A DNA stretch of 64,000 nucleotides, from positions 96,001 through 160,000 of the IMG/VR virus record IMGVR_UViG_3300038856_000064; one strand, given 5' to 3'. Shown here piece after piece: positions 35,561 to 60,589 of the stretch; the stretch's first letter is position 1, and each line of letters opens with the position of its first letter. The notes beneath the pieces were generated by a model. That model did no database searches and had not been told where the DNA came from. It saw only the letters and a list, made by a program, of their open reading frames with translations. The position numbers and the translations under genes were made by a program. Source of the stretch: a virus.

Positions 35561-35760
35561 TTGATGGGACGTTCTACCTTCCATCCATCAGGATAACGCT
35601 CATCCCATTCTCTTTTTAGGCGATCTGATTGTTCTCTTGAGTAGATGATGGCTCTTTTAACCGGCTCACTCTCCGGATGTGGCGGCAACTTATTTCTCGC
35701 GCACAACAAATAACACTCAAGAATGTATGGATAATTTGGCTCGCTGTCTGCATTCATCAA
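35557..35760 (-). CDS. Hypothetical protein
   Basis: 67 aa between terminase and portal. Confidence 0.55.
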   Translation of the reverse strand: MMNADSEPNYPYILECYLLCARNKLPPHPESEPVKRAIIYSREQSDRLKREWDERYPDGWKVERPIN

Positions 35761-38700: not shown

Positions 38701-38840
38701 CGAAATACAAGCTCAACAAATTTAGTCAGACTAATATCGGACACACGATTAACTATATACGGATATTCTTTTTGGTCGTGTATATAGAGACTGTCACGAA
38801 TTTTAGTTTCGTCAGTAATTATTTTAGTTTGGACAGACAT
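35757..38840 (-). CDS. terL: Terminase large subunit (intein-containing)
   Basis: Walker A ACRGAGKT, Walker B LVCDE, nuclease YVMGLDPARWND and DRYSAL. Confidence 0.92.
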   Translation of the reverse strand: MSVQTKIITDETKIRDSLYIHDQKEYPYIVNRVSDISLTKFVELVFRNKFGDPLRLLPFQSVMLQMMWAKKFPMVLACRGAGKTYMLAVYCILKCLLVPGTKVVIVSGGFRQAKFTFQYIDEIIKSSPIIEETIRKFHPGNSFGVKFATDKVYLKVGHNTEITGIPVGDGSKVRGMRACVEPTTIVETNNGLRRIKDIVDNPEDITLHYGNGKFAAPSKFVKTCPIDAYKITTECGYEVVCSDIHRLWTTKGWKDAVKLQPSKDFLPLELGGKFNSEEKLGVDLAWLLGAVISEGCCSNKYRISVKNAVGEFCDRVEQIAIDKFGKASRYYCPPREDPRGWTSKPSYEIHFGNLKQRQWLESEIGLGYSTARFKKIPAAILNGSRDEVISFLTGLFDGDGTAYLYKDKTRENNLGISYYTASEQLGKDVQVLLLKLGIMCSRTSRSSKLSDHPQYMLRINGVQMMKFINTIRPSRFVEVYKKADLDIRFCKEKTEKVIRSVEKLDGKHILYDFEIPESHSFIGNGIKNHNTTLVCDEVASIDDQVFDTAIGPFLSVKADPSEAVIVQEFIARLRKLGANEEIIGKIEEERRGGGNQLVLSGTATYQFSHFFRRYEAYNIFAKSNGNPQVIKEGLRRQSRDGTISVTDEMLERWKKIWHEYAVFSLPYHAMPEGFLDSDIVANHKAIMDPVIFGHEYECKFSKDTNGFFPRSIIDAASPGKGNPEEFHYELFGEPGFQYVMGLDPARWNDNFGLVILKLVGTTAQVVYCDSWNKSKWEVSIDRIKDALARFPNITYIACDKGGGGDTVQEMLASAKYLREGEQPIIEIEPSDDYKAIPNARRILEMVNFHTWAVPANHNLKRDFIMKNVIFPGRLDDDIVMEKHAKRLLDVPEFDYEDNEHIACVEHINNLLYGTENDDGDPITLGAYKEMQELTNELCTIVQTVTEKGTEGFGLQKLSDQPDGLDVRRRDRYSALLLAAHAARVIKGHGHEKSWGKAYGGTPQDILKNAPRRGMGYTPMNRKGGVIY
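37251..38306 (-). mobile_element. Intein with LAGLIDADG endonuclease (352 aa)
   Basis: RA|CVEPTTIVET...; block B CSDIHRLWT; LLGAVISEG and FLTGLFDGDG; ends YDFEIPESHSFIGNGIKNHN|T. Confidence 0.93.
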
Positions 38841-47028: not shown

Positions 47029-47056
47029 TTGACATCTAGAAAGTTTATGGTATACT
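47029..47056 (+). promoter_or_regulatory. Sigma70-like early promoter, leaderless
   Basis: TTGACA-N16-TATACT with TG extension; ATG at 47062. Confidence 0.8.
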
Positions 47057-47061
47057 GTCAT

Positions 47062-47424
47062 ATGGACATCATCGAATTCCACGGCATCGGAATCGAATTC
47101 ACCTACTACGGAGCCGAACGCTACGGAGCCGAACGCGGGCGCCCCACGTACGCGACCCTCGACGACTACTACGTCTCAAATTGGGACGATTTCGCCGCAC
47201 ATTGGAGTGCAACCCGCTGGTTCGGGCCGACTCTCCAGGCGATGCTCGACACCATCGTTGACGAGTTCGCCGATAAGATCGAACAGGAGGCAATCGACTG
47301 CTCGCAGGAGCCCGAGCCCGAGTACGACCCGTACGAAGACAGCGACTACGACTACGACGATGGTCCGTCATGTACGGGTGGAGACTACTGGCGGAATGAC
47401 GCTGGTGAGTGGAGACTCGGATAA
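47062..47424 (+). CDS. Acidic hypothetical early protein
   Basis: Start moved to ATG just after the -10 box. Confidence 0.7.
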   Translation: MDIIEFHGIGIEFTYYGAERYGAERGRPTYATLDDYYVSNWDDFAAHWSATRWFGPTLQAMLDTIVDEFADKIEQEAIDCSQEPEPEYDPYEDSDYDYDDGPSCTGGDYWRNDAGEWRLG

Positions 47425-47546
47425 TCCGGACATCTAGAGATGCGCGCGGAACACCGCGCCCTCTCGGGCTTGCGGGCGACATATCGGGCGAATATTTGAC
47501 TTCTAAAATTGACTACTAGCAGGTTTTGTGATATCCTTTCACTGAA

Positions 47547-47798
47547 ATGAGCAGAACCAGACGCAAGATTCCCCCGGAATGGTCAGATGCTGAGTGGATC
47601 GATGGTTACGATCCCGCTCGCGACCACGACAGTTACGGGCGACATATCCCGAACTACTTGAAGCGATATATCGGGATCGGATCGGACAACTACGGGTGTG
47701 CCTGTTGCTTTCCGGGTCCGAAGTCTCGTAAAGAGAAGATTCGGTCCGCCAAACGCAAGGAAAAGCGGGAAGCAATGAAACAGATTCTCGACATCTAG
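47547..47798 (+). CDS. Hypothetical basic protein
   Basis: TTGACT-N17-TATCCT promoter at 47509-47537. Confidence 0.65.
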   Translation: MSRTRRKIPPEWSDAEWIDGYDPARDHDSYGRHIPNYLKRYIGIGSDNYGCACCFPGPKSRKEKIRSAKRKEKREAMKQILDI

Positions 47799-47821
47799 AA
47801 AAGATTGTGATATACTTCAGC

Positions 47822-48025
47822 ATGAACGCCACGAAACAGATCGACTGGAATGCGGTCGAAAAACGTGCCGCCGAAATGTCGACGCTTTCGCTCCGCTTCG
47901 CCCTAGTGGACATCCACGAAACTCTCCCCCATGCCGACGATCTCGATAGACTGGACGGTGGCAATCGCGGTGGATACTATCGCGATGAGGCTTCGATCTA
48001 CTGGCGTGAATTGAAAAAACGGTAA
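47822..48025 (+). CDS. Hypothetical early protein, leaderless
   Basis: TCGACA-N17-TATACT at 47788-47816. Confidence 0.65.
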   Translation: MNATKQIDWNAVEKRAAEMSTLSLRFALVDIHETLPHADDLDRLDGGNRGGYYRDEASIYWRELKKR

Positions 48026-48067
48026 GATTCCATTTGACATCTAGATGGTCTGAGGTATCATACTTCT

Positions 48068-48247
48068 ATGACGAACGATACACATAACGGCCTGACCTTC
48101 AAGCAATGGCTTGCGAAGGTCGACGAGATCCTGACTCGCGAAATCGGAATCTCGCATGCAGACATCGCCCGTCACCTAGCAAAAGCAGAGGTACAAGAGC
48201 GTTTCGGATACGAAGCCGATGCGATCGACGATTGCGACTTCGACTAG
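48068..48247 (+). CDS. 59-aa hypothetical protein, leaderless (below track cutoff)
   Basis: TTGACA-N16-TATCAT at 48034-48061; MTNDTHNGLTFKQWLAKVD... Confidence 0.7.
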   Translation: MTNDTHNGLTFKQWLAKVDEILTREIGISHADIARHLAKAEVQERFGYEADAIDDCDFD

Positions 48248-48275
48248 GAACATCGGGTAGATAATTCTGCCCACT

Positions 48276-48308
48276 AGCCTCGGGGAGAAGGGACCCCTGG
48301 GGCTTTTT
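48276..48308 (+). terminator. Terminator
   Basis: AGCCTCGGGG/CCCCTGGGGCT + T run. Confidence 0.7.
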
Positions 48309-48404
48309 GTGTACAGCGCGACAACTCGCGCTTGCCTCCGACATATCGCGAAAGTATTTGACTGCTAAATTTGACTTCTGGGGAAGTTTGTGATACACTT
48401 AGAT

Positions 48405-48776
48405 ATGGAAAAGCTCACAGCGCAAAACGTCGCGGACATCGCCTATCGCTACTATGCGAATGGTGGAAAATCTGGACACACTCCGGGAGACCGTTCGCCT
48501 GATGGGTGCACGTATTTCCGCTCCGATGGCGGTCGGTGTGCGATCGGTGCGGTACTGGATCACTTGGGGTATACTAAAAAGGATCTGGGCGATCACAATG
48601 AGCTGACTACGGTCTCGATGCTTTTCGACGAACTACCCGGTATCCGCGAAAAATTCAGTTGCGATGTCGAATTTCTGGAAAGTCTCCAGCGAGCGCACGA
48701 CGGATCAGAACGCGACGATGAAATTCCGGAACGAATCCGCTGGACTTGTCGCGATCACGGAGTATACTTGAGATAA
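48405..48776 (+). CDS. Hypothetical phage protein, leaderless
   Basis: TTGACT-N17-TACACT at 48371-48399; CTY...RCAIG...LQRAHD. Confidence 0.7.
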   Translation: MEKLTAQNVADIAYRYYANGGKSGHTPGDRSPDGCTYFRSDGGRCAIGAVLDHLGYTKKDLGDHNELTTVSMLFDELPGIREKFSCDVEFLESLQRAHDGSERDDEIPERIRWTCRDHGVYLR

Positions 48777-48824
48777 CTTCAAAGCACCTAGAGGCGGAAC
48801 TAGGCTAAATCCGCATTTCTTTTA

Positions 48825-48937
48825 GGGGTAGATAGGTTTTTGACATCTAGAATACGGTTTGGATACCAGCCGCGAAAAGCCCAACGCAAAAACGCGGTTT
48901 GTCTAGATGGACCCGAGTTCAATTCTCGGCTACTCCA
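48825..48937 (+). ncRNA. Mini-tmRNA 1 (tRNA-like domain only, 113 nt)
   Basis: Acceptor GGGGUAG/CUACUCC-A with G3.U70; stemless D-loop AUAGGUUUUUGA; helix CAUCUAGA/UCUAGAUG; GAC linker; T-arm CCGAG-UUCAAUU-CUCGG. Confidence 0.85.
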
Positions 48938-48944
48938 TAAATTC

Positions 48945-49047
48945 GTTAGAGCGCGACATATTGGAATAGTAAGGTTCGCACAAACTTACTAGGACAATGG
49001 TGCGGGGCGGTGTGCGCCGCAAGTAGGTTCGATTCCTACCTCTAACA
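48945..49047 (+). ncRNA. tRNA-like RNA with acceptor stem and T-arm but non-tRNA core
   Basis: GUUAGAG/CUCUAAC-A; T-arm GUAGG-UUCGAUU-CCUAC; internal hairpin UAGUAAG/CUUACUA. Confidence 0.75.
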
Positions 49048-49059
49048 TAAATTCGGGAA

Positions 49060-49155
49060 GTGTTGAAATAACGACTAGTGGTACCAACCGCTATGGTGTA
49101 AAGTCTTATAAGGGCTGAGCACACCCGAAACTTCTTACACGTTAGCTGTCAACAC
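49060..49155 (+). ncRNA. Structured RNA element of unknown class
   Basis: Closing stems GUGUUGA/UCAACAC and UAACG/CGUUA enclosing further hairpins. Confidence 0.5.
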
Positions 49156-49163
49156 AATTTGAG

Positions 49164-49215
49164 AGCCCTGACCCGAGTAGCTTAGAAATAGGCTTCTGGA
49201 GTTAGGGCTTTTTTT
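49164..49215 (+). terminator. Terminator of first RNA cluster
   Basis: AGCCCTGAC/GTTAGGGCT + T run. Confidence 0.75.
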
Positions 49216-49362
49216 ATCTGATACACCCGAGCCTCTCGGGCATGCTTCCGACATATCGAGAAAAGGTTTGACTTTCTGACACCTAGATAAGAAGTGAGAG
49301 TATACTTTCAACATGACCGAACACAGGAACTCATCGACGAACTGTGGTGAGTGGAATTCAGC

Positions 49363-49390
49363 TTGACAACTAGAACAACTAGGGTATACT
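49363..49390 (+). promoter_or_regulatory. Sigma70-like promoter for second RNA cluster
   Basis: TTGACA-N16-TATACT; followed by 15-codon ORF MRKIKAPTGRRKRAR (49396-49443). Confidence 0.8.
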
Positions 49391-49480
49391 TCTCCATGCG
49401 AAAGATCAAAGCGCCTACTGGCCGTAGGAAAAGGGCGCGATAACATAAATACCTCCTATGCGGCATACCGGGTTTCCGGT

Positions 49481-49529
49481 ACCCCGACGAAAAGAGTAGC
49501 CAGATATATCGGGGTTTGATAACTCTGGC
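49481..49529 (+). ncRNA. H-type pseudoknot
   Basis: ACCCCGA(49481)/UCGGGGU(49509) interleaved with GCCAGA(49499)/UCUGGC(49524). Confidence 0.55.
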
Positions 49530-49534
49530 AATAA

Positions 49535-49602
49535 GGGAGTGACAGGTTTAGGCAACTAGTGAATACTATGTTGTAACGTGGGTTCGATTCCCACCACTTC
49601 CA
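49535..49602 (+). ncRNA. Mini-tmRNA 2 (tRNA-like domain only, 68 nt)
   Basis: GGGAGUG/CACUUCC-A with G3.U70; D-loop ACAGGUUUAG; helix GCAAC-UAGU/ACUA-U-GUUGU; AAC linker; T-arm GUGGG-UUCGAUU-CCCAC. Confidence 0.85.
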
Positions 49603-49682
49603 TAAAGCCCTAGGTGGACGCAAGTCGCATACTAGGTTGATACTGCCGGTTTGGGTTATACCGGAGGAAGGTTCAACCTAGG

Positions 49683-49731
49683 GTGGTAACCTTGACCGGA
49701 CCAAGCTAGATGGTCAAAATAACCACTTTTT
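49683..49731 (+). terminator. Terminator-like hairpin ending second RNA cluster
   Basis: GTGGT..TTGACC/GGTCAA..ACCAC + TTTTT. Confidence 0.55.
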
Positions 49732-49917
49732 ACCTCAGGTGATACACCCGATCCTCTCTGCCATGCCGCGCGCATATCGCAACTATATCAGACACCTCCT
49801 CCCCTCCTCAAGTATATCGCAACCCTGGAGAAAAGTCAAGTATTATTTTGAGAACATCTAGGTGCTTTTCCACCCTGCTTTTCTTGCCATCTTCGACAAG
49901 TCATGTATACTTAGGGC

Positions 49918-50196
49918 ATGAGCAAGAACAACACGAACATCGGGAAGTTTCTCACCGATCTGGCAAGCAAGGCATCTCCGCTGAACGCGCAAGCTATCGC
50001 GGACTTGCAAGACAAGATGCGCGCAGAGAAGGTAGTGGAATTGGAGCGCAGGATCCGTCACGTTCTGAAATGCATCAACACCGAAGTCACCGAACTGCGT
50101 ACCCTCCGCAAGCGTGAGGCGGAGACCAAAAAGCGCATCAAGGATTTGGAGAAGCTCGCGAACGACATCGTCACCGGAAAGGACATCGACGACTAG
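49918..50196 (+). CDS. Coiled-coil early protein, leaderless
   Basis: TTGCCA-N16-TATACT at 49884-49911; 92 aa. Confidence 0.75.
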   Translation: MSKNNTNIGKFLTDLASKASPLNAQAIADLQDKMRAEKVVELERRIRHVLKCINTEVTELRTLRKREAETKKRIKDLEKLANDIVTGKDIDD

Positions 50197-50198
50197 CC

Positions 50199-50261
50199 TG
50201 TTATACTGACGAGATCCGGGCAAAAGGATCGAAACTAGGCATAGCCTAGTCTATAATGCCT
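50199..50261 (+). ncRNA. Hammerhead ribozyme, type I
   Basis: Stem I UGUUAUA/UAUAAUG, core CUGACGA, stem II GAUCC/GGAUC, GAAA, stem III CUAGGC/GCCUAG, GUC site at 50249-50251. Confidence 0.92.
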
Positions 50262-50398
50262 ATAAAATGGGGGTTTGACCAAGTGCTAAGTGCCAAAATG
50301 GTTGAATCCCGTGCCAGTGACATTATCGTTCAATAGTGTCCAGTGCAAAAGCAGACAACTAGAGTCTCGGGTGCCAGTCACCTGAGGCTCTTTCGTTT
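50252..50398 (+). ncRNA. Putative ribozyme-released small RNA with repeated GUGC motifs
   Basis: Three hairpins, GUGC at 50283, 50290, 50311, 50343, 50371; last hairpin is terminator-like. Confidence 0.55.
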
Positions 50399-50715
50399 AT
50401 ACACCGAAACAACTCGCGCTTGCCTGCCAAACATATTTTATATCAGCGAGACTCGCCCCTCCTAAGTATATCATAAGATAGGGGAATGTCAAGAACAACT
50501 AGAATAAATATTAGCACGATACCCTACCGCGCACGTACGCGCGAATATCACAAGATCCGCAATTTGTCAAGCTCGTAAGAGATATTTTCTCAGAATGATT
50601 TCTAGGTGATTTTGGATCCATTCACTTGCTTTTCGTTCGAACTAGGGTATATTGATTGTGGCTAGCGCAACGGAGCGCATAAGCAAACACAAAACCCGAA
50701 CACGAGGATACAAGA

Positions 50716-51261
50716 ATGGACGAACAGAACATCACCACCGACGACGTCGAAAACTTCGATGTCACCGAACAGAACGACGACAGGCAACGACGCGAGCGGA
50801 GAACGCCAGCTCAGATTATCGCCGATTTGGAAGCCGAGATTGCGGCACGAAAGGCCGCTCTGGACGGCAAGATCGATACGAGTACCGAGCACGGTCTCGG
50901 CAAGGCTCTGCGGAACGCACGACGCAAGCGCAATACCGCGCTGAAGGCCGCACAGGTCATCGTCGAAGGAATCCCCGCCAGCGACGGTAAGGGCTGGACT
51001 CGCAAACCGATGTCCGAGACGATCAAAAACACCGAAAAGCGCTTGGAGTCGCAACGCGAGACTCTGAACCGAGCGGAGTACCAGCGCGCCGATCTGCCGA
51101 CGTGGATCGCTCGCCTGGACTCTCTCCTGGAAGCCCTCGAAAGGGGCGACGACGTCGAATTCCCGCGCGATATGCCGCCCCTCGAAAATGAGAAGGACCG
51201 CTCTGCCGAGGAGCACGAGGCGGCTTTCTACGCGAAGAGTCAGGAAGGCGACGACGCCTGA
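50716..51261 (+). CDS. Charged helical early protein
   Basis: 181 aa, GAGGA RBS, promoter TTGCTT-N16-TATATT at 50626, terminator 51270-51305. Confidence 0.75.
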   Translation: MDEQNITTDDVENFDVTEQNDDRQRRERRTPAQIIADLEAEIAARKAALDGKIDTSTEHGLGKALRNARRKRNTALKAAQVIVEGIPASDGKGWTRKPMSETIKNTEKRLESQRETLNRAEYQRADLPTWIARLDSLLEALERGDDVEFPRDMPPLENEKDRSAEEHEAAFYAKSQEGDDA

Positions 51262-51269
51262 TCCCCTGG

Positions 51270-51305
51270 GGGAGTCTCTATAAGGGACTCCCATTCTCTT
51301 TTTTT
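51270..51305 (+). terminator. Terminator
   Basis: GGGAGTCTC/GGGACTCCC + T run. Confidence 0.75.
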
Positions 51306-51322
51306 GTGTGGTATACTTAGGT

Positions 51323-51628
51323 ATGCAAACGACAACTAGACAACGGACCGTATCGCGAATCGGCTTACACCGCGCGACGCAATTCCTCTGGAATGAAACG
51401 CAAGGGCTGATCTTTTCGTGCTACTTTCGCAAGAAGGACGGCACGATGCGCGAGATGGTCTGCCGACGCGGTGTCAAAAAGCATTTACGCGGCGGATCGC
51501 TCCCCTACGACGCAAAGGCAAACAATCTACTGCCAGTGTTCGATATGACTCTCGGCGAGTACCGAACGGTAAATCTCGCCACTCTGGTTTCCTTCAATTT
51601 CGGTGACGAAACTTTCGTTGTAATGTAG
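51323..51628 (+). CDS. WYL-like/SH3 beta-barrel phage protein, leaderless
   Basis: FSCYFRKKDGTMREM...VFDMTLGEYRTVNL; extended -10 TATACT at 51312. Confidence 0.65.
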   Translation: MQTTTRQRTVSRIGLHRATQFLWNETQGLIFSCYFRKKDGTMREMVCRRGVKKHLRGGSLPYDAKANNLLPVFDMTLGEYRTVNLATLVSFNFGDETFVVM

Positions 51629-51660
51629 CGCCCTCATTCTATCATCCGAGAATGCTGGTG

Positions 51661-51712
51661 TGCCGGAGGCGGTTGTTCTTTCCAGAGATCATCCCCGTCT
51701 CCGGCATTTTTT
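51661..51712 (+). terminator. Terminator
   Basis: TGCCGGAGGCGG/CCGTCTCCGGCA + TTTTTT. Confidence 0.8.
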
Positions 51713-51822
51713 GTTTGAAACAGCGCGACAACTCGCGCTATGCCTGCCACATATCGTCCTATAATGAGACACGTTTTGACCACCTAATTTGACATCTAGA
51801 TGATTTTGGGGTATACTAAATC

Positions 51823-52164
51823 ATGCAAGATAAGAACAAATGGCATCGGCGCACTACGGCGTTTATGGGACAAGTCGCAAAGGAACTCGGTATCCCGAGA
51901 AACAAACGCACAATCCACTCAAATAAAGGTGGAAATGCGGTAGGTGGCGAAGTGACGATGAGCGCACCGGAATTCGGTGTATACGTTCACCTAACGTGCC
52001 CAGTCAATTCCTACGGTATGGAAGATCGGATCGGAAGCAACTACGTACGACGAGCAACGGCAGACGATCCCTACGGTACCGCGATCGACAAACAAAACCA
52101 TTTTCTCACTACTCAACTAAACCCGACAGAGATAGCTGATTTTTGTAGAAAGATCGTCACCTAG
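51823..52164 (+). CDS. Hypothetical early protein, leaderless
   Basis: TTGACA-N17-TATACT at 51789-51817. Confidence 0.75.
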   Translation: MQDKNKWHRRTTAFMGQVAKELGIPRNKRTIHSNKGGNAVGGEVTMSAPEFGVYVHLTCPVNSYGMEDRIGSNYVRRATADDPYGTAIDKQNHFLTTQLNPTEIADFCRKIVT

Positions 52165-52187
52165 ATAATCTTGGGGTATACTTACGC

Positions 52188-52379
52188 ATGACTACCCTTT
52201 ACACTCTAGTAGAAATTCGTCCGAACGGACACGAAACCGAGCTTTACCTCGGAACGAAACTGAAGGACGGGACCCGAACCAAGTATACGGTAGATGGTAA
52301 TATTGCCTACCAGACCCAAAAGAAGTGGGAAGAGGCAAATCCAAACTACCGATACGAAGTTAGACTAATGAACATCTAG
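52188..52379 (+). CDS. Hypothetical early protein, leaderless
   Basis: TATACT at 52177, ATG 5 nt later. Confidence 0.65.
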   Translation: MTTLYTLVEIRPNGHETELYLGTKLKDGTRTKYTVDGNIAYQTQKKWEEANPNYRYEVRLMNI

Positions 52380-52386
52380 AGGAATC

Positions 52387-52851
52387 ATGACAGAACGCGT
52401 ACAAGCTGCCAGGAAGATCACGCACGACACTTTGGCCGAATACGATCTATACGATCGGGGTTGGCGATTCAAGCTAACCCGCGGCAAGAACACTCTTGGA
52501 TGGTGCAACTATAAGGATAAGACGATCGGCATTTCGTCTCACCTTATCGAGAACGGCACGATCGAGGAAATCGCAAACACGATCATTCACGAAATTGCCC
52601 ACGCCAGAACTCCCGGCGAGAATCACGGATGGAAGTGGCGAGCAGTCGCTAGGGAAATGGGTCTGAAAAATCCGGGTCCATATACGAAAATCTCTTACGA
52701 ACTACCGCATAAATACGAACTTAGGTGCGGTGTTCATGGCACTATCGAAAAGCGCCACCGACGTAGCAAACCCGAAAAACTTGCTAGGATCTATTGCCGA
52801 AAGTGTGGATCTGGCAGTGTCGGAACCCTTAGGCTTGTGGAGGTCAACTAG
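52387..52851 (+). CDS. SprT-like zinc metalloprotease
   Basis: TIIHEIAHA...HGWKW...C-terminal CRKC. Confidence 0.85.
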   Translation: MTERVQAARKITHDTLAEYDLYDRGWRFKLTRGKNTLGWCNYKDKTIGISSHLIENGTIEEIANTIIHEIAHARTPGENHGWKWRAVAREMGLKNPGPYTKISYELPHKYELRCGVHGTIEKRHRRSKPEKLARIYCRKCGSGSVGTLRLVEVN

Positions 52852-53136
52852 ATGGATATCGACGACATTTTTCCCCCTGAAGATCAATGGAAGCGCGAAG
52901 CAGACTTCCGGCACCATATCGAGCAGAAAAATCAAATGGACGATTTACTCTGCGGCGCTATTGATCCGATCAAGGTCGGTGACCGAGTTATGTATCGAGA
53001 GGATACAAGTCTAGGTGCCGGTACAATCATTCACATTGCCCTATCGAGATACCCTTATAGGGTACGATGGGATGACGATAGTTACGTGGATATTGTAGAC
53101 TGGTACTACGGAGACCAACTAATCAAAGCTACGTAA
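52852..53136 (+). CDS. Small SH3/KOW-like protein
   Basis: IKVGDRVMY...GAGTI...YRVRWD. Confidence 0.55.
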   Translation: MDIDDIFPPEDQWKREADFRHHIEQKNQMDDLLCGAIDPIKVGDRVMYREDTSLGAGTIIHIALSRYPYRVRWDDDSYVDIVDWYYGDQLIKAT

Positions 53137-53324
53137 TGAATAGGCGCGAGACACCGCGCCTACTCTGCCTTGCCGCCCACATATCGCCATATATAGCGAA
53201 GCCTGCCCCTCCCTTCTATTATACCACGGGGAATCAGAAAAGCAACTAGAAAATAAGGAAATCTAAGGTCGGGATTCCTAGGTGCTTCACTTGCCATTCT
53301 CAGCATCGTGCGGTATACTTCGAC

Positions 53325-53495
53325 ATGAGCAAAAAGCATTTCGAGGCAATCGCTAAGCTGGTGCGCGAAGCCGATTACTTGACTGACGACCAACAACGTA
53401 TTCTTGCTAATCAGCTCTCTTACGTGCTGGAAAATAGCAATATGTTGTTTGATCCGGAGCGTTTTATCGAGGCAGCGACGACTAAGGACAACTAG
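53325..53495 (+). CDS. 56-aa phage protein (MSKKHFEAIA...FDPERF type), leaderless
   Basis: Below track cutoff; TTGCCA-N17-TATACT at 53291-53319. Confidence 0.75.
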   Translation: MSKKHFEAIAKLVREADYLTDDQQRILANQLSYVLENSNMLFDPERFIEAATTKDN

Positions 53496-54259
53496 TGAGT
53501 AAACCTGACCTGACGTATATCTCTAAGGGAAACTCTAAGACTGAGTGTTTCTCTTTTGATTTACCCGCAATCGAAACCTGTCCAGGACGAACGCAAGAAT
53601 GCTCTAAGGATTGTTATGCCGCTAGCCTTATGCGGATTTATCCGCAATTGCAGAAGCGGTACCAGGACAACTACAACATTACGTTTCACCCCTCTTTCGT
53701 GCGCTATATGGTGGATAACATTCCACCTAATTGCCAATTCCGTATCCATGTAAGCGGAGACTTTTTCCACGCTGATTACGTTCGTAAATGGATCGAGATT
53801 TGCCGCGCACGTCCCGATGTCACGTTTTACGCTTACACGCGGTCGTGGCGCATTCCGGCTATATGGGATAAAATCCAAGAGCTTCACGCGCTTCCCAACG
53901 TCAACGTAAACCTATCTGTAGATAACGAAACCGGACCGCCGAACCAGCGAGTCTATAAGAATTTTCACGCCGCAAGTCAAATGCGGTGGTGCTATCTGAC
54001 TAAAACGGATAGTGTTCCCGAGTGGATCAACGAAGACGATATCGTGTTCCGCTCGAATCATAACGGGCAACCTGGCAATCACAAGTGGAAGCGCAAGAAA
54101 GCTATCAAGCAAGGGCTCGACCCTAATGAAGTAGCGCCGCTCGTAAAACGTCTAGGTGGTCAAGTTTGCCCATTGGAACAGGGACAAGACGTCCCTAACT
54201 TTTCGTGTGCTAAGTGTCGACTATGTGTCGATAAACCTAAGGTGGTGGCATTTGTCTAA
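53495..54259 (+). CDS. Gp88-like Cys-rich (radical-SAM-related) phage protein
   Basis: FDLPAIETCPG...C...CYA, FRIHVSGDF, FYAYTRSW, CAKCRLC. Confidence 0.75.
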   Translation: MSKPDLTYISKGNSKTECFSFDLPAIETCPGRTQECSKDCYAASLMRIYPQLQKRYQDNYNITFHPSFVRYMVDNIPPNCQFRIHVSGDFFHADYVRKWIEICRARPDVTFYAYTRSWRIPAIWDKIQELHALPNVNVNLSVDNETGPPNQRVYKNFHAASQMRWCYLTKTDSVPEWINEDDIVFRSNHNGQPGNHKWKRKKAIKQGLDPNEVAPLVKRLGGQVCPLEQGQDVPNFSCAKCRLCVDKPKVVAFV

Positions 54260-54354
54260 TGTCTCGCCTTTTTTGGATGGTGATACTACCTATGGAATGA
54301 TGCTGTTGGCATTTATCCTAGGTGTTTTATTTACAACTAGAACAAAATGGAGTG

Positions 54355-54591
54355 ATGATGAAAATCGTTGAAGATGATAAAGTAGGTGTTCCGTTCTCGG
54401 ATATTCCGCCAGGAACCATCTTTGTTTGTGAGGAGGTTTATTACCTCAAAACTTTTGAAGCCGATCGCGACGTCACCGGATACTATACCAATTCGGTAGG
54501 TCTGGAAACTGGCGCTCACGAACATTTTGGCGATGACGTTGTCGTCGATAGCGTGCCTATGTCTCTGAAGATTACCCAGGGGGGAACATGA
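54355..54591 (+). CDS. Hypothetical protein, tandem paralog A
   Basis: VPFSDIPPGTIF...YYLK...LKITQG. Confidence 0.7.
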   Translation: MMKIVEDDKVGVPFSDIPPGTIFVCEEVYYLKTFEADRDVTGYYTNSVGLETGAHEHFGDDVVVDSVPMSLKITQGGT

Positions 54592-54815
54592 AAATTATTG
54601 AAAAAGAAAACGTAGACGTTCCGTTTCTGAATCTGACTCCAGGAACTATCTTTCGTTTTGATGATATCTACTACCTAAAGGTCCACGAAATCCACGATCA
54701 TGTGGGGTCTACTTTCAATGCCATGGTTTTATTCAACGGCACTAGTGAGTATTTCACCAGCGATATTATCGTCGACAAGGTTCCGGGAACTTTGGAAATT
54801 ACTCAAGGCATCTAG
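54588..54815 (+). CDS. Hypothetical protein, tandem paralog B
   Basis: VPFLNLTPGTIF...YYLK...LEITQG. Confidence 0.7.
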   Translation: MKIIEKENVDVPFLNLTPGTIFRFDDIYYLKVHEIHDHVGSTFNAMVLFNGTSEYFTSDIIVDKVPGTLEITQGI

Positions 54816-55010
54816 ATGAAACTCTCACTCAAATTCCTACGCCTCAATGACTATACTCATTGCGAAGAAGAAGTAAAAGAAGGAACGATTTACGGTTTCT
54901 GGCGCATTGTGGAGCATACCGGCGCGGGATGGTTTCCGTGGCCCGGAATTTATGAATCGCGCGAACGTGCGCAAAAGATTCTAGATGCCCATATTTCTCT
55001 GAATAAGTAA
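54816..55010 (+). CDS. Hypothetical protein
   Basis: Abuts upstream TAG. Confidence 0.6.
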   Translation: MKLSLKFLRLNDYTHCEEEVKEGTIYGFWRIVEHTGAGWFPWPGIYESRERAQKILDAHISLNK

Positions 55011-55443
55011 TCTCAAAGGCTGGAACACCCAGCCTACTCTGGCTTGCCCGCCGCCCATATCGCTACATTATAAGACTCCTACAAACGACCCCTAGAACTA
55101 TACCACATATAAGGGAGACCCCTGGCGTACTTTCTGAGTACTCTTATAGTTTTCTTCTAGAGGGTCTTACCTACAGGTGCCGCGCACATTCAACATCGCC
55201 TTGTGTTATTTGTTCTAGATGTCTCTCTCAACCTAACTTAAACTTAAACTTAGTCAAGCACACTAGCTAAGGCGCTGTGTGCGCTGGCATGTTTCGTTGC
55301 GGCTAATACTATTAGTATGTGTCTAGAATTTAAATTCGTGCGTGAAATGTCTTGTTTTCTGATCGTGCGTCTCATTTTGAGAAAATGTGGGGAAAATCAC
55401 GGGAAGTTTGGCTCTAGGTGCATATCTGTGATAGATTACGACC

Positions 55444-55857
55444 ATGATTCAAGCTCTCAGAAACGCTAATCCTGTACAGATATGGATCGCGCAGACATTT
55501 AATACGACCGTGCCCCTGTCCGATGGCAGAACTATTGTTGTGCGGTTCGATTTGTCTAGTTGTGATATTTTTTATGACCCACTAGAAAAGATGAGATTAG
55601 CAAAGGCTTACAGGGTCGAGGAGTCGGTTGTGGATTTTATTCAGATTGAGATGAATGAGATTGGCACGGCGGTTTATGATTCGGGCACAGTATCTATTTA
55701 TATTCTAGATGCTCTGGAGGCAAAAGACTGGAATCGTGCGAATAGTTTACTGGGACTGCTTGCTAAGTCTCTAGTTGCAATTGACTTAGACAAATCTCAA
55801 ATATGGGACAAATGGTTCGACAAAGTATATTCCTACATAAAAGAGAATTCGTCATAG
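55444..55857 (+). CDS. Hypothetical protein
   Basis: 137 aa; TG-extended TAGATT 6 nt before ATG. Confidence 0.65.
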   Translation: MIQALRNANPVQIWIAQTFNTTVPLSDGRTIVVRFDLSSCDIFYDPLEKMRLAKAYRVEESVVDFIQIEMNEIGTAVYDSGTVSIYILDALEAKDWNRANSLLGLLAKSLVAIDLDKSQIWDKWFDKVYSYIKENSS

Positions 55858-56366
55858 TTGGCGATAAATGGGCGAAATGGGGTGGAATTCGTCAGGAGTG
55901 GCGATAATTCGTTGGAAACGCGATTCCTTATTATCTCAGGATAAGGCGTGAGTTAAGTTTAATTGCCCCTCAGCTCCCAAAAACGTTTTCACCCGTTCAT
56001 GTTTCCCCCCTCTATATTTGTTTCTCTTGTTGTTTCTTTGGTTGTACTAGTAATACCTAAGACATCTAGAGGATCTAAGTATAGTTGTAGTAAACTTTTA
56101 TGTCCTTTTTGGTTCTTCCAGATTTATCCCTTTTACGAGGGTATTTATCATGCGTTTTGTGGCGTTCGTGGTAGTATGAACTGACGAACAGCCCGCGCGG
56201 GAACACCTAAACCACCTAGGATAAAATCCTCAAATTTCTCACCCCATCCTGTATATCTGGTGTATACTGACTGTAGCTGAAACAGCACAGGTGAACGTAA
56301 CATGATCGACGCTAAAGAACTCGAAACCGTATTCACTTCTTGTCTTTTTTATGAGGACAACTAGAG

Positions 56367-56600
56367 ATGAATCCACGCTATATCGCCTACGCTAAGGCTC
56401 ATGGTAAAACGCCTGATGCTATGCTAGCCCATGATAAAAAAGAATGGCCCGGTGGCTGTATGACCGGATTTATTCTCTGGATGCGCGAGCAGAAAGGCGC
56501 ATTTCGTAAGGCATCCCCTGAATCATTCTATATGGTAGGTGGGGCGCTTACTGAAATTGCAGACCAGGAAGCTTGGGATAACTTTTTACAGAACCAATAA
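56367..56600 (+). CDS. Hypothetical phage protein
   Basis: GAGGA RBS; MNPRYIAYAKAHG. Confidence 0.7.
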   Translation: MNPRYIAYAKAHGKTPDAMLAHDKKEWPGGCMTGFILWMREQKGAFRKASPESFYMVGGALTEIADQEAWDNFLQNQ

Positions 56601-56615
56601 CAACTAGAAAATAAG

Positions 56616-56828
56616 ATGTATACTACACTTACAGAACTAATTTCCGCGCTTCAGAAACTTGCCGCAGAAGGTCACGGTGATCTTCCCGTGTATGCCACTC
56701 ACGGTGCCTCTGGTGCTTCTGATCCAGTTGGCAGTCCCGATATCCAGAAAACTACCGGAGCGGAGCTTGGGGAGCTTTGTGAGCTTGACGTCGGCACTCC
56801 CTATGTGGATATCTACATCGGCAACTAG
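56616..56828 (+). CDS. Hypothetical protein
   Basis: 70-aa ORF in run. Confidence 0.65.
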   Translation: MYTTLTELISALQKLAAEGHGDLPVYATHGASGASDPVGSPDIQKTTGAELGELCELDVGTPYVDIYIGN

Positions 56829-56957
56829 ATAAAATGGCTTCCGACTTACGCTGTCCATACTGTGACGAAAATCTTGGCAAGGATACAGAAAATCCTCGCT
56901 TAGCTTACTGTTCAACATGTGGTGAAGGGGATATTAAAAATCCTCGGGGATATAAAA

Positions 56958-57347
56958 ATGACAACTAGAGATAATAAAATGGATAAGAAGCAACTACTTG
57001 AGCGTATCGCCTTACTGTTGGGCGAATACGAGGAGCAGGGTGACGGAAAGATCGTCGGATGTTATTTTGAGGATGAGAACGATATTATCCACGAATATAG
57101 CGGACAATCTTTTATGGCATGGGATCCAGGATTCGGGATCGGGAAGGTGAATATCAACTCAAGTCGCCCCGAAGAACTCACCGAAGAGGAAGGGGATAAA
57201 CCAATCCTAAAGAGTCAACATGTGACTATTAAAGCTGGTTCGAACATTGTCGTAAACGGCAGGCGAATGATTCTCGCGGAGGATCAATCTTTCTACCCTT
57301 CTAATTCAGGCGAGGGGATCCGAGTTTTTGCCGAACCGGCGCGATAG
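56958..57347 (+). CDS. Hypothetical protein
   Basis: ORF in run; start uncertain. Confidence 0.6.
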   Translation: MTTRDNKMDKKQLLERIALLLGEYEEQGDGKIVGCYFEDENDIIHEYSGQSFMAWDPGFGIGKVNINSSRPEELTEEEGDKPILKSQHVTIKAGSNIVVNGRRMILAEDQSFYPSNSGEGIRVFAEPAR

Positions 57348-57395
57348 CCTTGAGATATTCATTATTAGGGAGTTAGGGCAACTAGAAATATTAAA

Positions 57396-59447
57396 ATGGT
57401 AAATTTTATCGCACAGAATACCGAGGATTTTACGCCTGCTGTAAAGGCCGTTGTTCAGTTCGTGAAAGAAGAAACTGGCGAATGTCAGTGGATTACTCCA
57501 GCCGTTAGTGGTCCCGGAGGATGCGTCTATGAAGGCGTGGAGCCGGATTGTTTTATGGTCTACGTGGCAGGTAGAAAGGTTAATATTCTGCTTTCGGAAG
57601 ATCCAGATCGGGCAATTAAGCAAGTCAGGGGGATTCAATGACTAAGAATAGACTAGTTATGACTATGGTGTTGTTATTGGCGTCATATAGTGCGGAACCT
57701 ACCCCATCAAAATATGATCTTGGACAGTTGGTTTTGCTAAAAACAGGAGAAATCGGTATAATCGTAGTAGTTAAACCACGCTACAAGTCCTACTGGGTAC
57801 GAACCGTTATGGCGGGTAGGGTATACATCGAAGAATTTGAAATCGAAAAGGTAGTAGATAAATGAATGACAAAATACGAGCCCGCTGCGCCGTGCCTGAT
57901 GCTCCATGGACTAAGTGTTATCTTTGTATGAAACCACTTAAAACCTGCGAAAGGCCATACGATATGAATGGTGACTATATTTGTCCCGTACATACTGATG
58001 GTTCCGAAAACAGTGATGGGTACTGGGTTTGTAATAAGTGTTCTGAACAAGATAGTGACAACTAGATGAAAATCTTGGATATATCTCTGAAGGGTGATAC
58101 GCTCAGGTTTACCGCCGAAATTCGGGGAAGTAAAGTCACCTCATCCGTAAAAGACGTCGGTGAAGATCTATTGTTTGGCAAGCTTGTCAGGCGTATCCAT
58201 GTAAATGACGACTTTCATGCTGGCTTGCGTTGGGCGTTTCGTGATGATATTAATGAGTTGCGAATTTTACTTAACGAGAAACTAAACGAGCAAACTAGAT
58301 GAATATTCTAGATAGATATCGTCCACAATACACACACGATTGTGATGCCTGTCGCTTTATCTTTCGAGAGGGCGAGATGGATCTCTATTGGTGTAATGGC
58401 GCAGGGGGCGGGAGCGTGATCGTCCGGAAGGGCGACGAACCATTTTGTTACTACAGCGCAGACGTAATGACAGTGCTTATGACTGATGCAGATAGTCCCG
58501 TTGTCAAAATTTGTCGAAAAGTTGTTGCATATATCACGAGACATGGTATACTAGATATATCAGTAAACAACGAACAACTAGAAGCCTGGGATCTAGCGTT
58601 TAAAGACTAATGTTTTTTCTTCGATGTCAAAAATGTAAGGATGCTGCGTGCGCAACTTTGGTAGTGACCGAGGGGTCAGTTACTAAACACTATTGGGTTT
58701 GTGTGCATTGCTGGTATAGTCTTACTCCTAGGGAAAATTGGGGAGATATAGAGCTATGATGGTTACTTGGGCAGCAGTAGATATTTCTGATGATGCCATA
58801 AAGACGAGTGCGGGAATCGCAAGCTTTATGATCCTTGTCATTAAGGATTATGAAATTGTGGCACGCTTTCCGTATATGTCAACACTGGAACACGCTAAGA
58901 ACGAGGCAAAACGTCTACTAGACTGTTTCGTTGAAGGGCACTCCATTATCTTGGGAGCGCATTGGGAGACTGAAAAGGTATAAACTAATGACCACTAACT
59001 TTCTAGTTGCTATGACAATCGTGATGATTGTACTTATCGTCTCGTCACTACTTAAAGAACCAGACCAATATAATGAGGTAACGATTCGTGGCGTACAACT
59101 ACATATTGGACTTACCATGATGATGTGGATGAGCCTTTATCATATGCTGGAACTTATTTCTAATGGATGACGAGCATGACTTTTGTTTTAAAAAGAAAGA
59201 TGGCACTTATATCGACGTAGTGCAATTCTTTGATAGCACCTGGGGTATTCTCGTTGGAGAAAAATGGGTACAGGAAGGACTTAAAACTAGAGAAGAAGCT
59301 AGTGCTATCGCATTAGAATTGCTAGGCTTTAAGGACTTGAATAAGCCGCCCTATAATTGCGAAGATTGTTTCTGCACCATAATTTGTTCTAATTGTGAAA
59401 AATGGCCAAGTATGCCATGCTCGGACATTTGTGACCAGTGCTGCTAA
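57396..59447 (+). other. Run of tightly coupled small hypothetical genes
   Basis: 57396-57641, 57638-57865, 57862-58065, 58066-58302, 58299-58610, 58738-58983, 58988-59170, 59163-59447; mostly overlapping or abutting stop/start. Confidence 0.65.
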
Positions 59448-59450
59448 GAT

Positions 59451-60110
59451 ATGTTGTTTACTCCAAAAATAGAAATTATTGGTAATGTAAATGGTAGTTA
59501 TTCTGTAGATAGGCTATCGGAAGAGACTAGTGTTTATGCAGCCAGCCCTAATTTTGTTAGGCAGCACTGCGGGCCAATTGCTAATGATATTCTAGATGCC
59601 GTAAATCCATCCTACTACACCTTATGTGAAGAGCTGGGGATGCTTCCTAATATTGATATTAGGGTTCATCGCCTGAATATCGGTGAATATCCAGCTATCC
59701 CAGGATGGCACTGTGATGGGGTAAAGCGTGAAACTTATCATGGTCAACCTAATCCTGACCAGATTTGTATTCGTGATACTGTATTATGTGTTGTGTCGAT
59801 GGGGAGTATTTCTAATCCAGAAATTATAACAGAGCAACTAGAAATAGATGTTATTAATCAAGGAGATGATTTTAAATTTTGGCAGTATGTAGATAGCAAA
59901 ATCCCACATAATGTGGGTCGAATCGAAATGCCGGATGGACAGATTACCATGATCGGAGAATCAACACTGCATCGCGTTATGCCCGCAAAAGAACGAGGAT
60001 TTCGCTTATTCTTTCGAATGTCTATGTGGCATAATAATTATGTAGGCGATGAAGGTAAGATCGCTAAACAGCAACAAGTCTACTTGCTTCAGGGTGAGAA
60101 TGGATGGTAA
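59451..60110 (+). CDS. 2OG-Fe(II) dioxygenase-like protein
   Basis: PGWHCDG (HxD), distal LHR, RLFFR. Confidence 0.7.
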   Translation: MLFTPKIEIIGNVNGSYSVDRLSEETSVYAASPNFVRQHCGPIANDILDAVNPSYYTLCEELGMLPNIDIRVHRLNIGEYPAIPGWHCDGVKRETYHGQPNPDQICIRDTVLCVVSMGSISNPEIITEQLEIDVINQGDDFKFWQYVDSKIPHNVGRIEMPDGQITMIGESTLHRVMPAKERGFRLFFRMSMWHNNYVGDEGKIAKQQQVYLLQGENGW

Positions 60111-60565
60111 AGCCTCTAAGGCTCTACACCGATGGATCGTTAAATCCTGAAACTTTAGTCGCAGGATGGGCTTATCTTTTAGTTCATGGTGGTTGTGTCT
60201 TACTCGCAGAGTCGGGAACTTGCCATGGTGATTCTAATCACAGCGAATATATGGCAATTATTCAGGGTCTTCTAGCTGTCCCACCTACTACTAGAGTTCA
60301 TGTAATCACTGACAGGAATGACGTTGGCGATATGGTGCAGCACCCGCACCGTCAGAAATGCCGCTCAGGGCGTCTAGCATCCTATCGTAGGGCCATCTGC
60401 AAGATGATCCATCCCAGACACGTCAAGGTTAAGGTAATCGAATCTGGGGGCAGCCACTGGAGCCGTAGGGCAGATGATCTCGCACGACATGCTTGTGGAC
60501 TAGTCACTAAGAATCAAAAGAAGAGAATTAGTAAGAAGCGTAACAAGAAATCTGTTGACAACTAG
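60104..60565 (+). CDS. Ribonuclease HI-like protein
   Basis: LYTDGS, SEYMAIIQGL, VITD, RADDLA. Confidence 0.75.
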   Translation: MVKPLRLYTDGSLNPETLVAGWAYLLVHGGCVLLAESGTCHGDSNHSEYMAIIQGLLAVPPTTRVHVITDRNDVGDMVQHPHRQKCRSGRLASYRRAICKMIHPRHVKVKVIESGGSHWSRRADDLARHACGLVTKNQKKRISKKRNKKSVDN

Positions 60566-60589
60566 ACTAGATGGGGGTATAATGAAGGC

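Follow-up and report, generated by a model that had tools for sequence, protein, structure and literature searches.

Candidate tag-less mini-tmRNAs in the early region of a phage genome, accompanied by tRNA-like paralogues and a predicted hammerhead ribozyme

The closest described counterpart of the RNAs reported here belongs to mycobacteriophage DS6A, which is listed with a transfer-messenger RNA (tmRNA) of the "TLD only" type, i.e. reduced to the tRNA-like domain (TLD) (Hudson, Lau and Williams, 2014; PMC4131195). According to the passage on DS6A in that report, which is repeated in PMC11915505, a similar molecule strongly inhibits tmRNA in E. coli, chargeable or not, perhaps via titration of SmpB. 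Hammerhead ribozymes, often stabilised by a pseudoknot, flank genes of phages and prophages (Perreault et al., 2011; PMC3088659). The subject of this study is a DNA stretch of 64,000 nucleotides (nt), hereafter the window, which comprises bases 96001-160000 of a 175,148-bp virus contig from IMG/VR. Its island at 48.8-50.4 kb carries two short tmRNA-like genes (E1 and E3), two further structured elements (E2 and E4), a gene for a 92-amino-acid (aa) protein (ORF92) and a hammerhead motif. On balance, we favour the reading that the island consists of three independent early RNA cassettes and that E1 and E3 would act as decoys of SmpB and trans-translation. Unless marked as genome positions, coordinates refer to the window, and features lie on the plus strand unless stated otherwise.

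Judged from sequence and comparative structure, E1 (113 nt, 48825..48937) and E3 (68 nt, 49535..49602) are genuine tag-less mini-tmRNAs. In each of E1, E2 and E3, the acceptor stem pairs perfectly over 7 bp, the 5-bp T-stem carries a UUCRAUU loop, and UAAA comes after the discriminator A. A scan of both strands of the genome for a T-arm closed by a 7-bp acceptor gave 17 matches: nine tRNAs called by ARAGORN, E1-E3, four oversized tRNA-like genes in the tRNA region and one chance-like match. Since almost only tRNAs, E1-E3 and the four oversized genes were returned, chance is excluded for E1-E3. E1 (GGGGUAG...CUACUCC-A) is composed of a TLD with G3:U70 and A73, helix 2a (CAUCUAGA/UCUAGAUG) and a 50-nt insert with two hairpins. 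It scores 52.2 bits on the Rfam tmRNA model RF00023 (gathering score 47); a whole-window Rfam run at gathering thresholds returned no match. E3 (GGGAGUG...CACUUCC-A) is a minimal form whose acceptor carries G3:U70 and A73 and which further contains the D-loop analogue, a capped helix 2 and the T-arm. It matches the covariance model R1, described below, over the full model length (48.7 bits, E 1.6e-12). CCA is encoded in neither gene. Rfam, model R1 and the orthologues of E1 agree with the tmRNA mimics that had been proposed from the first inspection of the sequence.

Both RNAs contain the TLD of tmRNA (acceptor with G3:U70 and A73, T-arm, D-loop analogue, anticodon arm absent), and the mRNA-like domain with resume codon and tag frame is absent from both. 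The Rfam tmRNA model aligns E1 and E3 at its ends only and skips 326 central positions. Pseudoknots PK1 to PK4 are absent, the E1 insert being made up of two simple hairpins. In E3, only 27 nt separate the D-loop analogue from the T-stem. A frame that begins GCA AAA in E1 reaches UAG only in the window copy, and the frames opened by the same triplet in the two orthologues found in related contigs (G003 and L146) run without a stop inside the RNA. As no common reading frame or stop was seen among the three E1 orthologues, no tag appears to be encoded; a conserved tag frame was considered for E1 and ruled out, the frames being different in all three. Given their full TLD with G3:U70, a helix 2a that closes beyond a short insert and the lack of a tag frame, E1 and E3 have the features of the TLD-only type.

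RNAs of the same plan occur elsewhere in IMG/VR. A pattern scan for a GGTTT box shortly before the T-loop plus a UCCA end yielded at least 118 stretches, and a closed-acceptor filter left 31 distinct RNAs of 63-80 nt among the ~120 matches listed. Their common plan is a GGG-acceptor with G3:U70, GGUUUCGAC, a helix 2a of 6-8 bp, a small AAAGCC hairpin, GGAC and the T-arm. G3:U70 is present in 31/31, though the filter also admitted A3:U70, the pair found in 7/9 of the tRNAs caught by the same pattern. In a MAFFT alignment of the 31 RNAs, 91% of cells were paired compared to 62% in shuffles, and the covariation score was 0.71 compared to 0.16 (shuffles) and ≤0.15 (slid controls), the acceptor and part of the T-stem having been chosen by the filter itself. 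Helix 2a was not chosen in this way and shows double changes at 8/8 pairs. Model R1 was built from these 31 minis, which come from unrelated IMG/VR contigs, with the window sequences left out. Many of the 31 sit within phage tRNA arrays; examples between the tRNA genes of long arrays are L061:2457-2535 and L009:3685-3764, and one contig carries two mini-tmRNA genes (L075:1298-1374 and L075:3207-3288). ARAGORN missed or mis-called the minis of the present locus. Tag-less mini-tmRNAs thus look common among phages yet largely unannotated.

Orthologues of E1 were obtained by two routes. A terminase search led to three IMG/VR contigs at ~80% amino-acid identity, one of which (G003; 82 kb, terminase 81% identical) contains a syntenic E1 orthologue with 51 bits on R1. 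There, a TTGACA-17-TATACT promoter ends 9 nt upstream of the gene, which encodes CCA and has a terminator immediately 3' of it. A search with a 147-aa early protein retrieved 11 metagenome contigs, and one of these (L146) holds a third E1-type gene (34 bits on R1), preceded by a promoter and a leader. In 3/3 orthologues, all five helices (acceptor, helix 2a, the two hairpins of the insert, T-stem) pair either perfectly or with a single G:U, and G3:U70 is present in all three. The T-stems read CCGAG/CUCGG, GUGGG/CCCAC and CCGGC/GCCGG. As five helices are kept through sequence changes in the three orthologues, the E1 type represents a conserved 113-nt subfamily. With a DNA pattern for E1 orthologues, the viral contigs yielded G003 alone and the metagenome contigs no additional match.

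The covariation and conservation in related phages that had been suggested as a check were therefore seen for E1, with five helices in three sequences; the other parts of the island are absent from the relatives. G003 and L146 contain nothing similar to E2, E4, E3, ORF92, the hammerhead or the RNA downstream of it. Since the relatives carry E1 alone, the island is best described as a mosaic of separate cassettes and not as a conserved module. No relatives turned up via the flanking proteins (a 128-aa ORF, the 92-aa ORF and GP88), and blastn with the island as query was negative in 50,697 phage records.

The three units differ in content. For unit 1, the candidate start is a promoter-like site, TGGACT-16-TATACT (48741..48768), a consensus match only, which falls within the last part of the preceding leaderless ORF. 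A hairpin in the leader before E1 (48776-48824) folds no better than shuffles (z 0.1). E1 is followed by the 7-nt spacer TAAATTC (48938..48944), by E2 (103 nt, 48945..49047), by a second copy of the spacer (49048..49054) and by E4 (49055..49137). The unit ends with an intrinsic terminator, a long hairpin with U7 (49165..49215; -24.9 kcal/mol, z -4.4). The 9-mer CATAAATTC has two occurrences in the 175-kb genome, namely the E1/E2 and E2/E4 junctions, and from its sequence the E1-E2-E4 array resembles a polycistronic RNA precursor that undergoes processing.

E2 is a tRNA-like RNA (GUUAGAG...CUCUAAC-A) with a perfect 7-bp acceptor that contains U3:A70, hence alanine identity is absent. The acceptor is followed by an unpaired stretch with GG, a 7-bp hairpin, GGAC, an extra GC hairpin and a canonical T-arm; D-arm and anticodon arm are both missing. 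The fold energy is -37.1 kcal/mol (z -3.5). Model R1 matches the T-arm only (16.5 bits), and the one Rfam hit is a tRNA-Sec fragment covering variable arm and T-arm (15 bits). The layout appears to echo the mini-tmRNA plan, plus one hairpin and minus alanine identity. E2 is thus tRNA-like in its acceptor and T-arm and not in its core: as a tRNA with an insert, E2 was rejected because it gave no ARAGORN call at default settings and no match to the Rfam tRNA model. An E2 orthologue was found in neither G003 nor L146.

E4 is a cloverleaf-like element and the weakest of the series. It opens with GGGAAGUG right after the second spacer, is closed by GGGAAGU/ACUUCUU and has a 21-nt loop in place of the T-loop. 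Its fold z is -2.1, and no match was found in Rfam. E4 and E3 have GGGA(A)GUG, ACUAGUG and CUAUG (5' strand and helix-2 strands) in common. With low confidence, E4 may be a decaying tandem paralogue of E3; a MAFFT alignment of E1-E4 was uninformative.

Unit 2 is preceded by a leaderless mini-ORF of 17 codons (49313-49366) and starts from a TTGACA-16-TATACT promoter (49363..49390) with 12/12 consensus matches. The leader of E3 (49396..49534) is, over 96 nt, 74% identical to the leader 5' of the E1-type gene in L146, and the homology includes the promoter. A leaderless mini-ORF of 15 codons (49396-49443, product MRKIKAPTGRRKRAR; only 10 codons in the L146 counterpart) overlaps the conserved hairpin GCGCC/GGCGC, which is followed by ACAUAAAUACC and two more hairpins. 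The fold z of the leader is only -1.05. Downstream of E3, a structured trailer (49603..49735; fold z -2.6) ends in a weak terminator, a hairpin (49680-49729; z -0.8 for the hairpin alone) with U5.

In unit 3, the promoter TTGCCA-16-TATACT (49884..49911) precedes the leaderless ORF92 (49918..50196), whose ATG is placed 6 nt downstream of the -10 box. The protein is predicted to be largely coiled-coil and is an ORFan with no PHROG family; like the upstream 128-aa ORF, it is essentially without homologues among the 5.8 billion proteins searched, none being found for ORF92. The remaining ORFs of the region (50-121 aa, both strands) likewise match no PHROG family, and protein-coding readings of the minus-strand ORFs were discarded with no family matches.

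A motif finder located a type I hammerhead ribozyme motif at 50199..50261, beginning 3 nt after the ORF92 stop codon. Stem I, open as in type I, is formed by 50199-50205 with 50252-58, and is followed by CUGACGA (50206-12), stem II with its loop (50213-30), GAA (50231-33), stem III (50234-50) and C17 (50251). The core is complete (CUGACGA, G10.1-C11.1, GAAA, A15.1-U16.1 and C17) with a UH cleavage site; the stems have 7, 5 and 7 bp, and stems II and III also appear in the minimum free energy fold. The genome contains one match, compared to 0.05 per Markov-shuffled genome at lenient stems of 4/3/3, and the nine extra base pairs would put the probability of a chance hit near 1e-5 (extrapolated). 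The hammerhead named in the first-pass annotation was in this way recovered, while its "pseudoknot" could be assigned to no particular element. A pseudoknot between GGGCA of loop II and UGCCU is possible within the hammerhead itself. Cleavage is predicted between 50251 and 50252. The predicted 3' product is a structured RNA of ~150 nt (50252..50400; fold z -3.9) with five GUGC(C/U/A)A motifs compared to 0.08 expected (genome-corrected p ~7e-5, for a motif picked post hoc). A predicted terminator (50361-50391 plus a U-rich tract) ends the unit.

The surroundings match the early region of a phage. The contig has a GC content of 44% and is, by estimate, ~82% complete. Minus-strand genes for structure and packaging, portal and terminase among them, occupy bases 1-45,000 of the window. 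From ~45.6 kb onward, the plus strand is arranged in short cassettes, each consisting of a repeated intergenic motif, a TTGACA/TATACT-type promoter, a small gene and a terminator. Within 47.5-51.5 kb, a consensus scan counted 15 promoter-like sites compared to 3.7 expected. In at least nine cassettes (47051-60578, plus strand; ORFs of 56-123 aa), the ATG stands 5-6 nt 3' of the -10 box, so the early mRNAs are systematically leaderless; this hints that the host may translate leaderless messages efficiently. The intergenic repeat (ACACC..CTC..GC.TGCC..ACATATCG) lies at nine cassette borders, after the terminator and before the next promoter (46948, 47451, 48313, 49223, 49744, 50401, 51720, 53151 and 55025), and is kept in the relatives G003 and L146. 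Much of the original description of the island agreed with these data: the leaderless early mRNAs; ~1.6 kb, mainly non-coding, with 49918-50196 as the one sizeable credible coding sequence; three promoter-to-terminator units, albeit with a weaker terminator in unit 2; the CA/TAAA ends of E1, E2 and E3 at the positions claimed; and the precursor-like array with identical TAAATTC spacers.

Two strong sigma-70-like promoters were also seen on the minus strand, TTGACT-17-TATACT at 49811-49839 and TTGACA-16-TATACT at 50465-50492; these leftward promoters would yield RNAs antisense to the E3 trailer and the post-hammerhead RNA, respectively. Elsewhere in the window, the terminase (1027 aa; 35757-38840, minus strand) has a matching stretch of only ~2 kb in the relatives and also matches HNH-endonuclease and helicase PHROGs, which together suggest an inserted homing element or intein in the terminase gene. 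A 509-aa protein inside the structural block (27425-28954, minus strand) matches PHROGs for Mom-like DNA modification and for HNH/homing endonucleases.

The genome also encodes functions related to tRNA. ARAGORN called 16 tRNA genes at the contig start, several of them atypical, and none of the phage's own tRNA genes encodes CCA. A protein of the CCA-adding-enzyme family (PF01743) and a T4 Rnl1-type RNA ligase are encoded (genome 164692-165063 and 5757-6317), and together with the CCA-less tRNA genes they make up a toolkit for tRNA maturation and repair. SmpB, peptidyl-tRNA hydrolase, RtcB and a tyrosine integrase are not encoded in the genome. Several oversized genes were seen in the tRNA region. 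A tRNA-Met(CAU)-type gene (genome 311-437; L149:212-338) scores 43.9 bits on the Rfam tRNA model and has a 62-nt D-loop insertion; this insert-bearing tRNA contrasts with E2. The neighbouring 130-nt gene (genome 157-286) has a tRNA-like 5' end (acceptor, then UA). The inserts of both share a GCAGAGUNAACUGC hairpin, and ARAGORN misses both. Two more RNAs with tRNA-like acceptor and T-arm (genome 11530-11654, 125 nt; 14103-14240, 138 nt) are blank in Rfam and ARAGORN, and one of them holds a second, internal T-arm-like hairpin.

As E1 and E3 are tmRNA mimics with alanine identity, translation quality control is their obvious target, and as the phage has no SmpB of its own, the minis would have to act through host SmpB. 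We propose that host RNA polymerase would transcribe the minis early from the sigma-70-type promoters. Host RNase P and 3' processing would then free them from their precursors, with the UAAA(UUC) trailers marking the junctions, and CCA would be added, possibly by the phage's own CCA-adding enzyme. Host alanyl-tRNA synthetase (AlaRS) could charge E1 and E3 via G3:U70, and both could bind host SmpB, plus EF-Tu when charged, in competition with host tmRNA. The outcome would be a block of the tagging and degradation of stalled-ribosome proteins, or of trans-translation itself. E2, with G3:U70 lost, and E4, with the T-loop lost, would be diverged tandem paralogues; uncharged E2 may still titrate SmpB or tRNA-processing enzymes, and E4 may be decaying. 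Independently, a hammerhead cut after C50251 would split the ORF92 mRNA, left with a cyclic-phosphate end, from the ~150-nt RNA.

Several observations weigh against this reading and its parts. E3 obtained 42.1 bits on the Rfam tmRNA model, under the gathering score of 47. The R1 match of E1 is local only (23 bits), owing to the 50-nt insert, and the E1-type gene of L146 has a non-canonical 6-nt T-loop. The hammerhead is below every Rfam threshold (RAGATH-1-hammerhead 19.7-20.2 bits vs 56.3; no match to RF00163). No orthologues are found for E2 and E4, for the leader and trailer RNAs, or for ORF92, the hammerhead and the RNA that follows it, and the evidence for each comes from a single sequence.

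Other explanations were considered for the same data. A tag-less form of ribosome rescue is possible, if doubtful: alanylated E1 or E3 would, together with SmpB, move into stalled ribosomes, accept the nascent chain and end translation without a proteolysis mark, thereby freeing ribosomes and sparing phage proteins from damaged or leaderless mRNAs. The strict retention of G3:U70 in the class and in the three E1 orthologues suggests that charging matters, whereas a pure SmpB sponge would need none; moreover, the A-rich loop that the E1 type retains in insert hairpin 2 (AAAAGCCCAACGCAAAAA) resembles UAAAAAGCCGCAAAAAAUAGUC, the segment of E. coli ssrA that immediately precedes the resume codon. 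Such a role is difficult to reconcile with three E1 orthologues that have neither a conserved frame nor a conserved stop codon, with the unclear release route of a peptidyl-mini-tmRNA in a phage without peptidyl-tRNA hydrolase, and with the inhibition by chargeable and non-chargeable molecules alike in the DS6A passage of PMC4131195. We regard it as unlikely that an expanded TLD family divides the labour, with E1 and E3 as charged forms, E2 as an uncharged acceptor/T-arm and E4 as a form without T-loop, each titrating different host factors (SmpB, AlaRS/EF-Tu, tRNA end-processing or CCA-end-directed enzymes). In that case the RNA set free by the hammerhead, which has five GUGCCA-like motifs, would serve as one more sponge in an RNA-only early programme against host translation surveillance. 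The first-pass annotation had gone further and seen one co-evolved, RNA-based host-takeover system of six elements, directed against translation quality control and tRNA-directed defences. Real RNA genes, two tmRNA mimics among them, were found, lying within 1.6 kb of the early region, with identical spacers joining E1, E2 and E4, in a phage that invests in tRNA biology (the tRNA genes, CCA-adding enzyme and ligase described above). A single system is nevertheless rather improbable: the relatives hold E1 only, promoters and terminators are separate, and the borders carry the same intergenic motif as the neighbouring protein cassettes. RNAs without an anticodon arm cannot decoy anticodon nucleases, which makes a role against tRNA-targeting defences unlikely.

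It has also to be asked whether the elements are genes with a product of their own. The tRNA-like elements might chiefly be cleavage signals for RNase P and RNase Z that set where adjacent early transcripts end, a part that tRNA-like elements play in some polycistronic RNAs. E1 stands directly after a 123-codon leaderless ORF with only a weak hairpin between them, E2 retains the acceptor/T-arm unit seen by processing enzymes even though E2 and E4 have no alanine identity, and CAUAAAU is found at the 3' junctions of both E1 and E2 as well as within the conserved leader (the E3 end reads CAUAAAG). In G003, however, E1 is flanked only by a promoter and a terminator of its own, which leaves nothing to punctuate, and the class-wide G3:U70, the D-loop analogue GGUUUCGAC and helix 2a exceed processing needs, so we hold this to be very improbable. 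That the elements are non-functional debris, either decaying captured tmRNA fragments or attP-type copies of the 3' end of host ssrA, is hardly credible. The precedent is that ssrA-integrating phages carry tmRNA 3' fragments (PMC9004378, PMC10865867), and E4 does look degenerate. Against it, E1 and E3 have both acceptor strands, compensatory changes occur across the orthologues, each gene has its own promoter, and the genome has no tyrosine integrase, which makes an attP origin unlikely. Debris is largely refuted for E1 and E3 and is possible for E4. Almost no credence is given to the permuted two-piece tmRNA that ARAGORN calls at default settings (48848-49276, tag AEHTRNFLHVSCQHNLRALTRVA). 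This call is a mis-parse in which the 3' half of E1 is joined to a chance complement in E2: the E1 3' strand pairs with GGAAUAG with one mismatch and without G3:U70, whereas E1's own 5' strand is a perfect partner. In addition, the Rfam tmRNA_permuted model RF04321 gives 17.9 bits (gathering score 47), and the tag is atypical and located in E4, which the relatives lack.

The locus offers a natural variant series in one transcript (predicted charged, apparently unchargeable and T-loop-less), which could help to find out what features an RNA needs in order to disturb SmpB and tmRNA. If the minis do act as decoys, shutdown of trans-translation would be a routine step of phage takeover, and the minis would be compact RNA inhibitors of a pathway essential in many bacteria. 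With the hammerhead, phage early regions gain another predicted instance of transcripts being processed by a ribozyme.

RNAC and RNAD of phage T4 have tRNA-like ends. They are small RNAs of the T4 tRNA region with roles unknown (PMC3014915), and like them E2 is a phage RNA by tRNA-type genes and not a decoding tRNA; it has no sequence relation to anything in Rfam. The hammerhead resembles those of PMC3088659 in its full catalytic core, three stems, possible pseudoknot between loop II and the 3' tail and position between a gene and the next segment. It differs in being a single copy 3 nt after a stop codon that would free a motif-rich non-coding RNA instead of separating two mRNAs. With canonical tmRNA (RF00023), E1 and E3 share the acceptor with G3:U70 and A73, the D-loop analogue, helix 2a, the GGAC linker and the T-arm. 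Unlike canonical tmRNA and the full-length or two-piece tmRNAs of phages (Melnitz; PMC9004378), they have no mRNA-like domain, conserved tag frame or pseudoknots 1-4, and at 68 nt (E3) and 113 nt (E1) they are far shorter than the roughly 260-430 nt of canonical tmRNA. Compared to the TLD-only tmRNA of DS6A, taken by its description only, the present genome has two divergent copies, an E1 with a conserved 50-nt two-hairpin insert, genes that do not encode CCA, and an array with tRNA-like paralogues. In view of the DS6A RNA (PMC4131195, PMC11915505) and of phage hammerheads (PMC3088659), the initial statement that no system of this kind had been described was too strong. Each kind of part is already known in phages, and it is their tandem arrangement that is not described. 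What is new is the E1-type subfamily with its two-hairpin insert, the E1-E2-E4 array with identical 7-nt spacers, and the paralogues without alanine identity.

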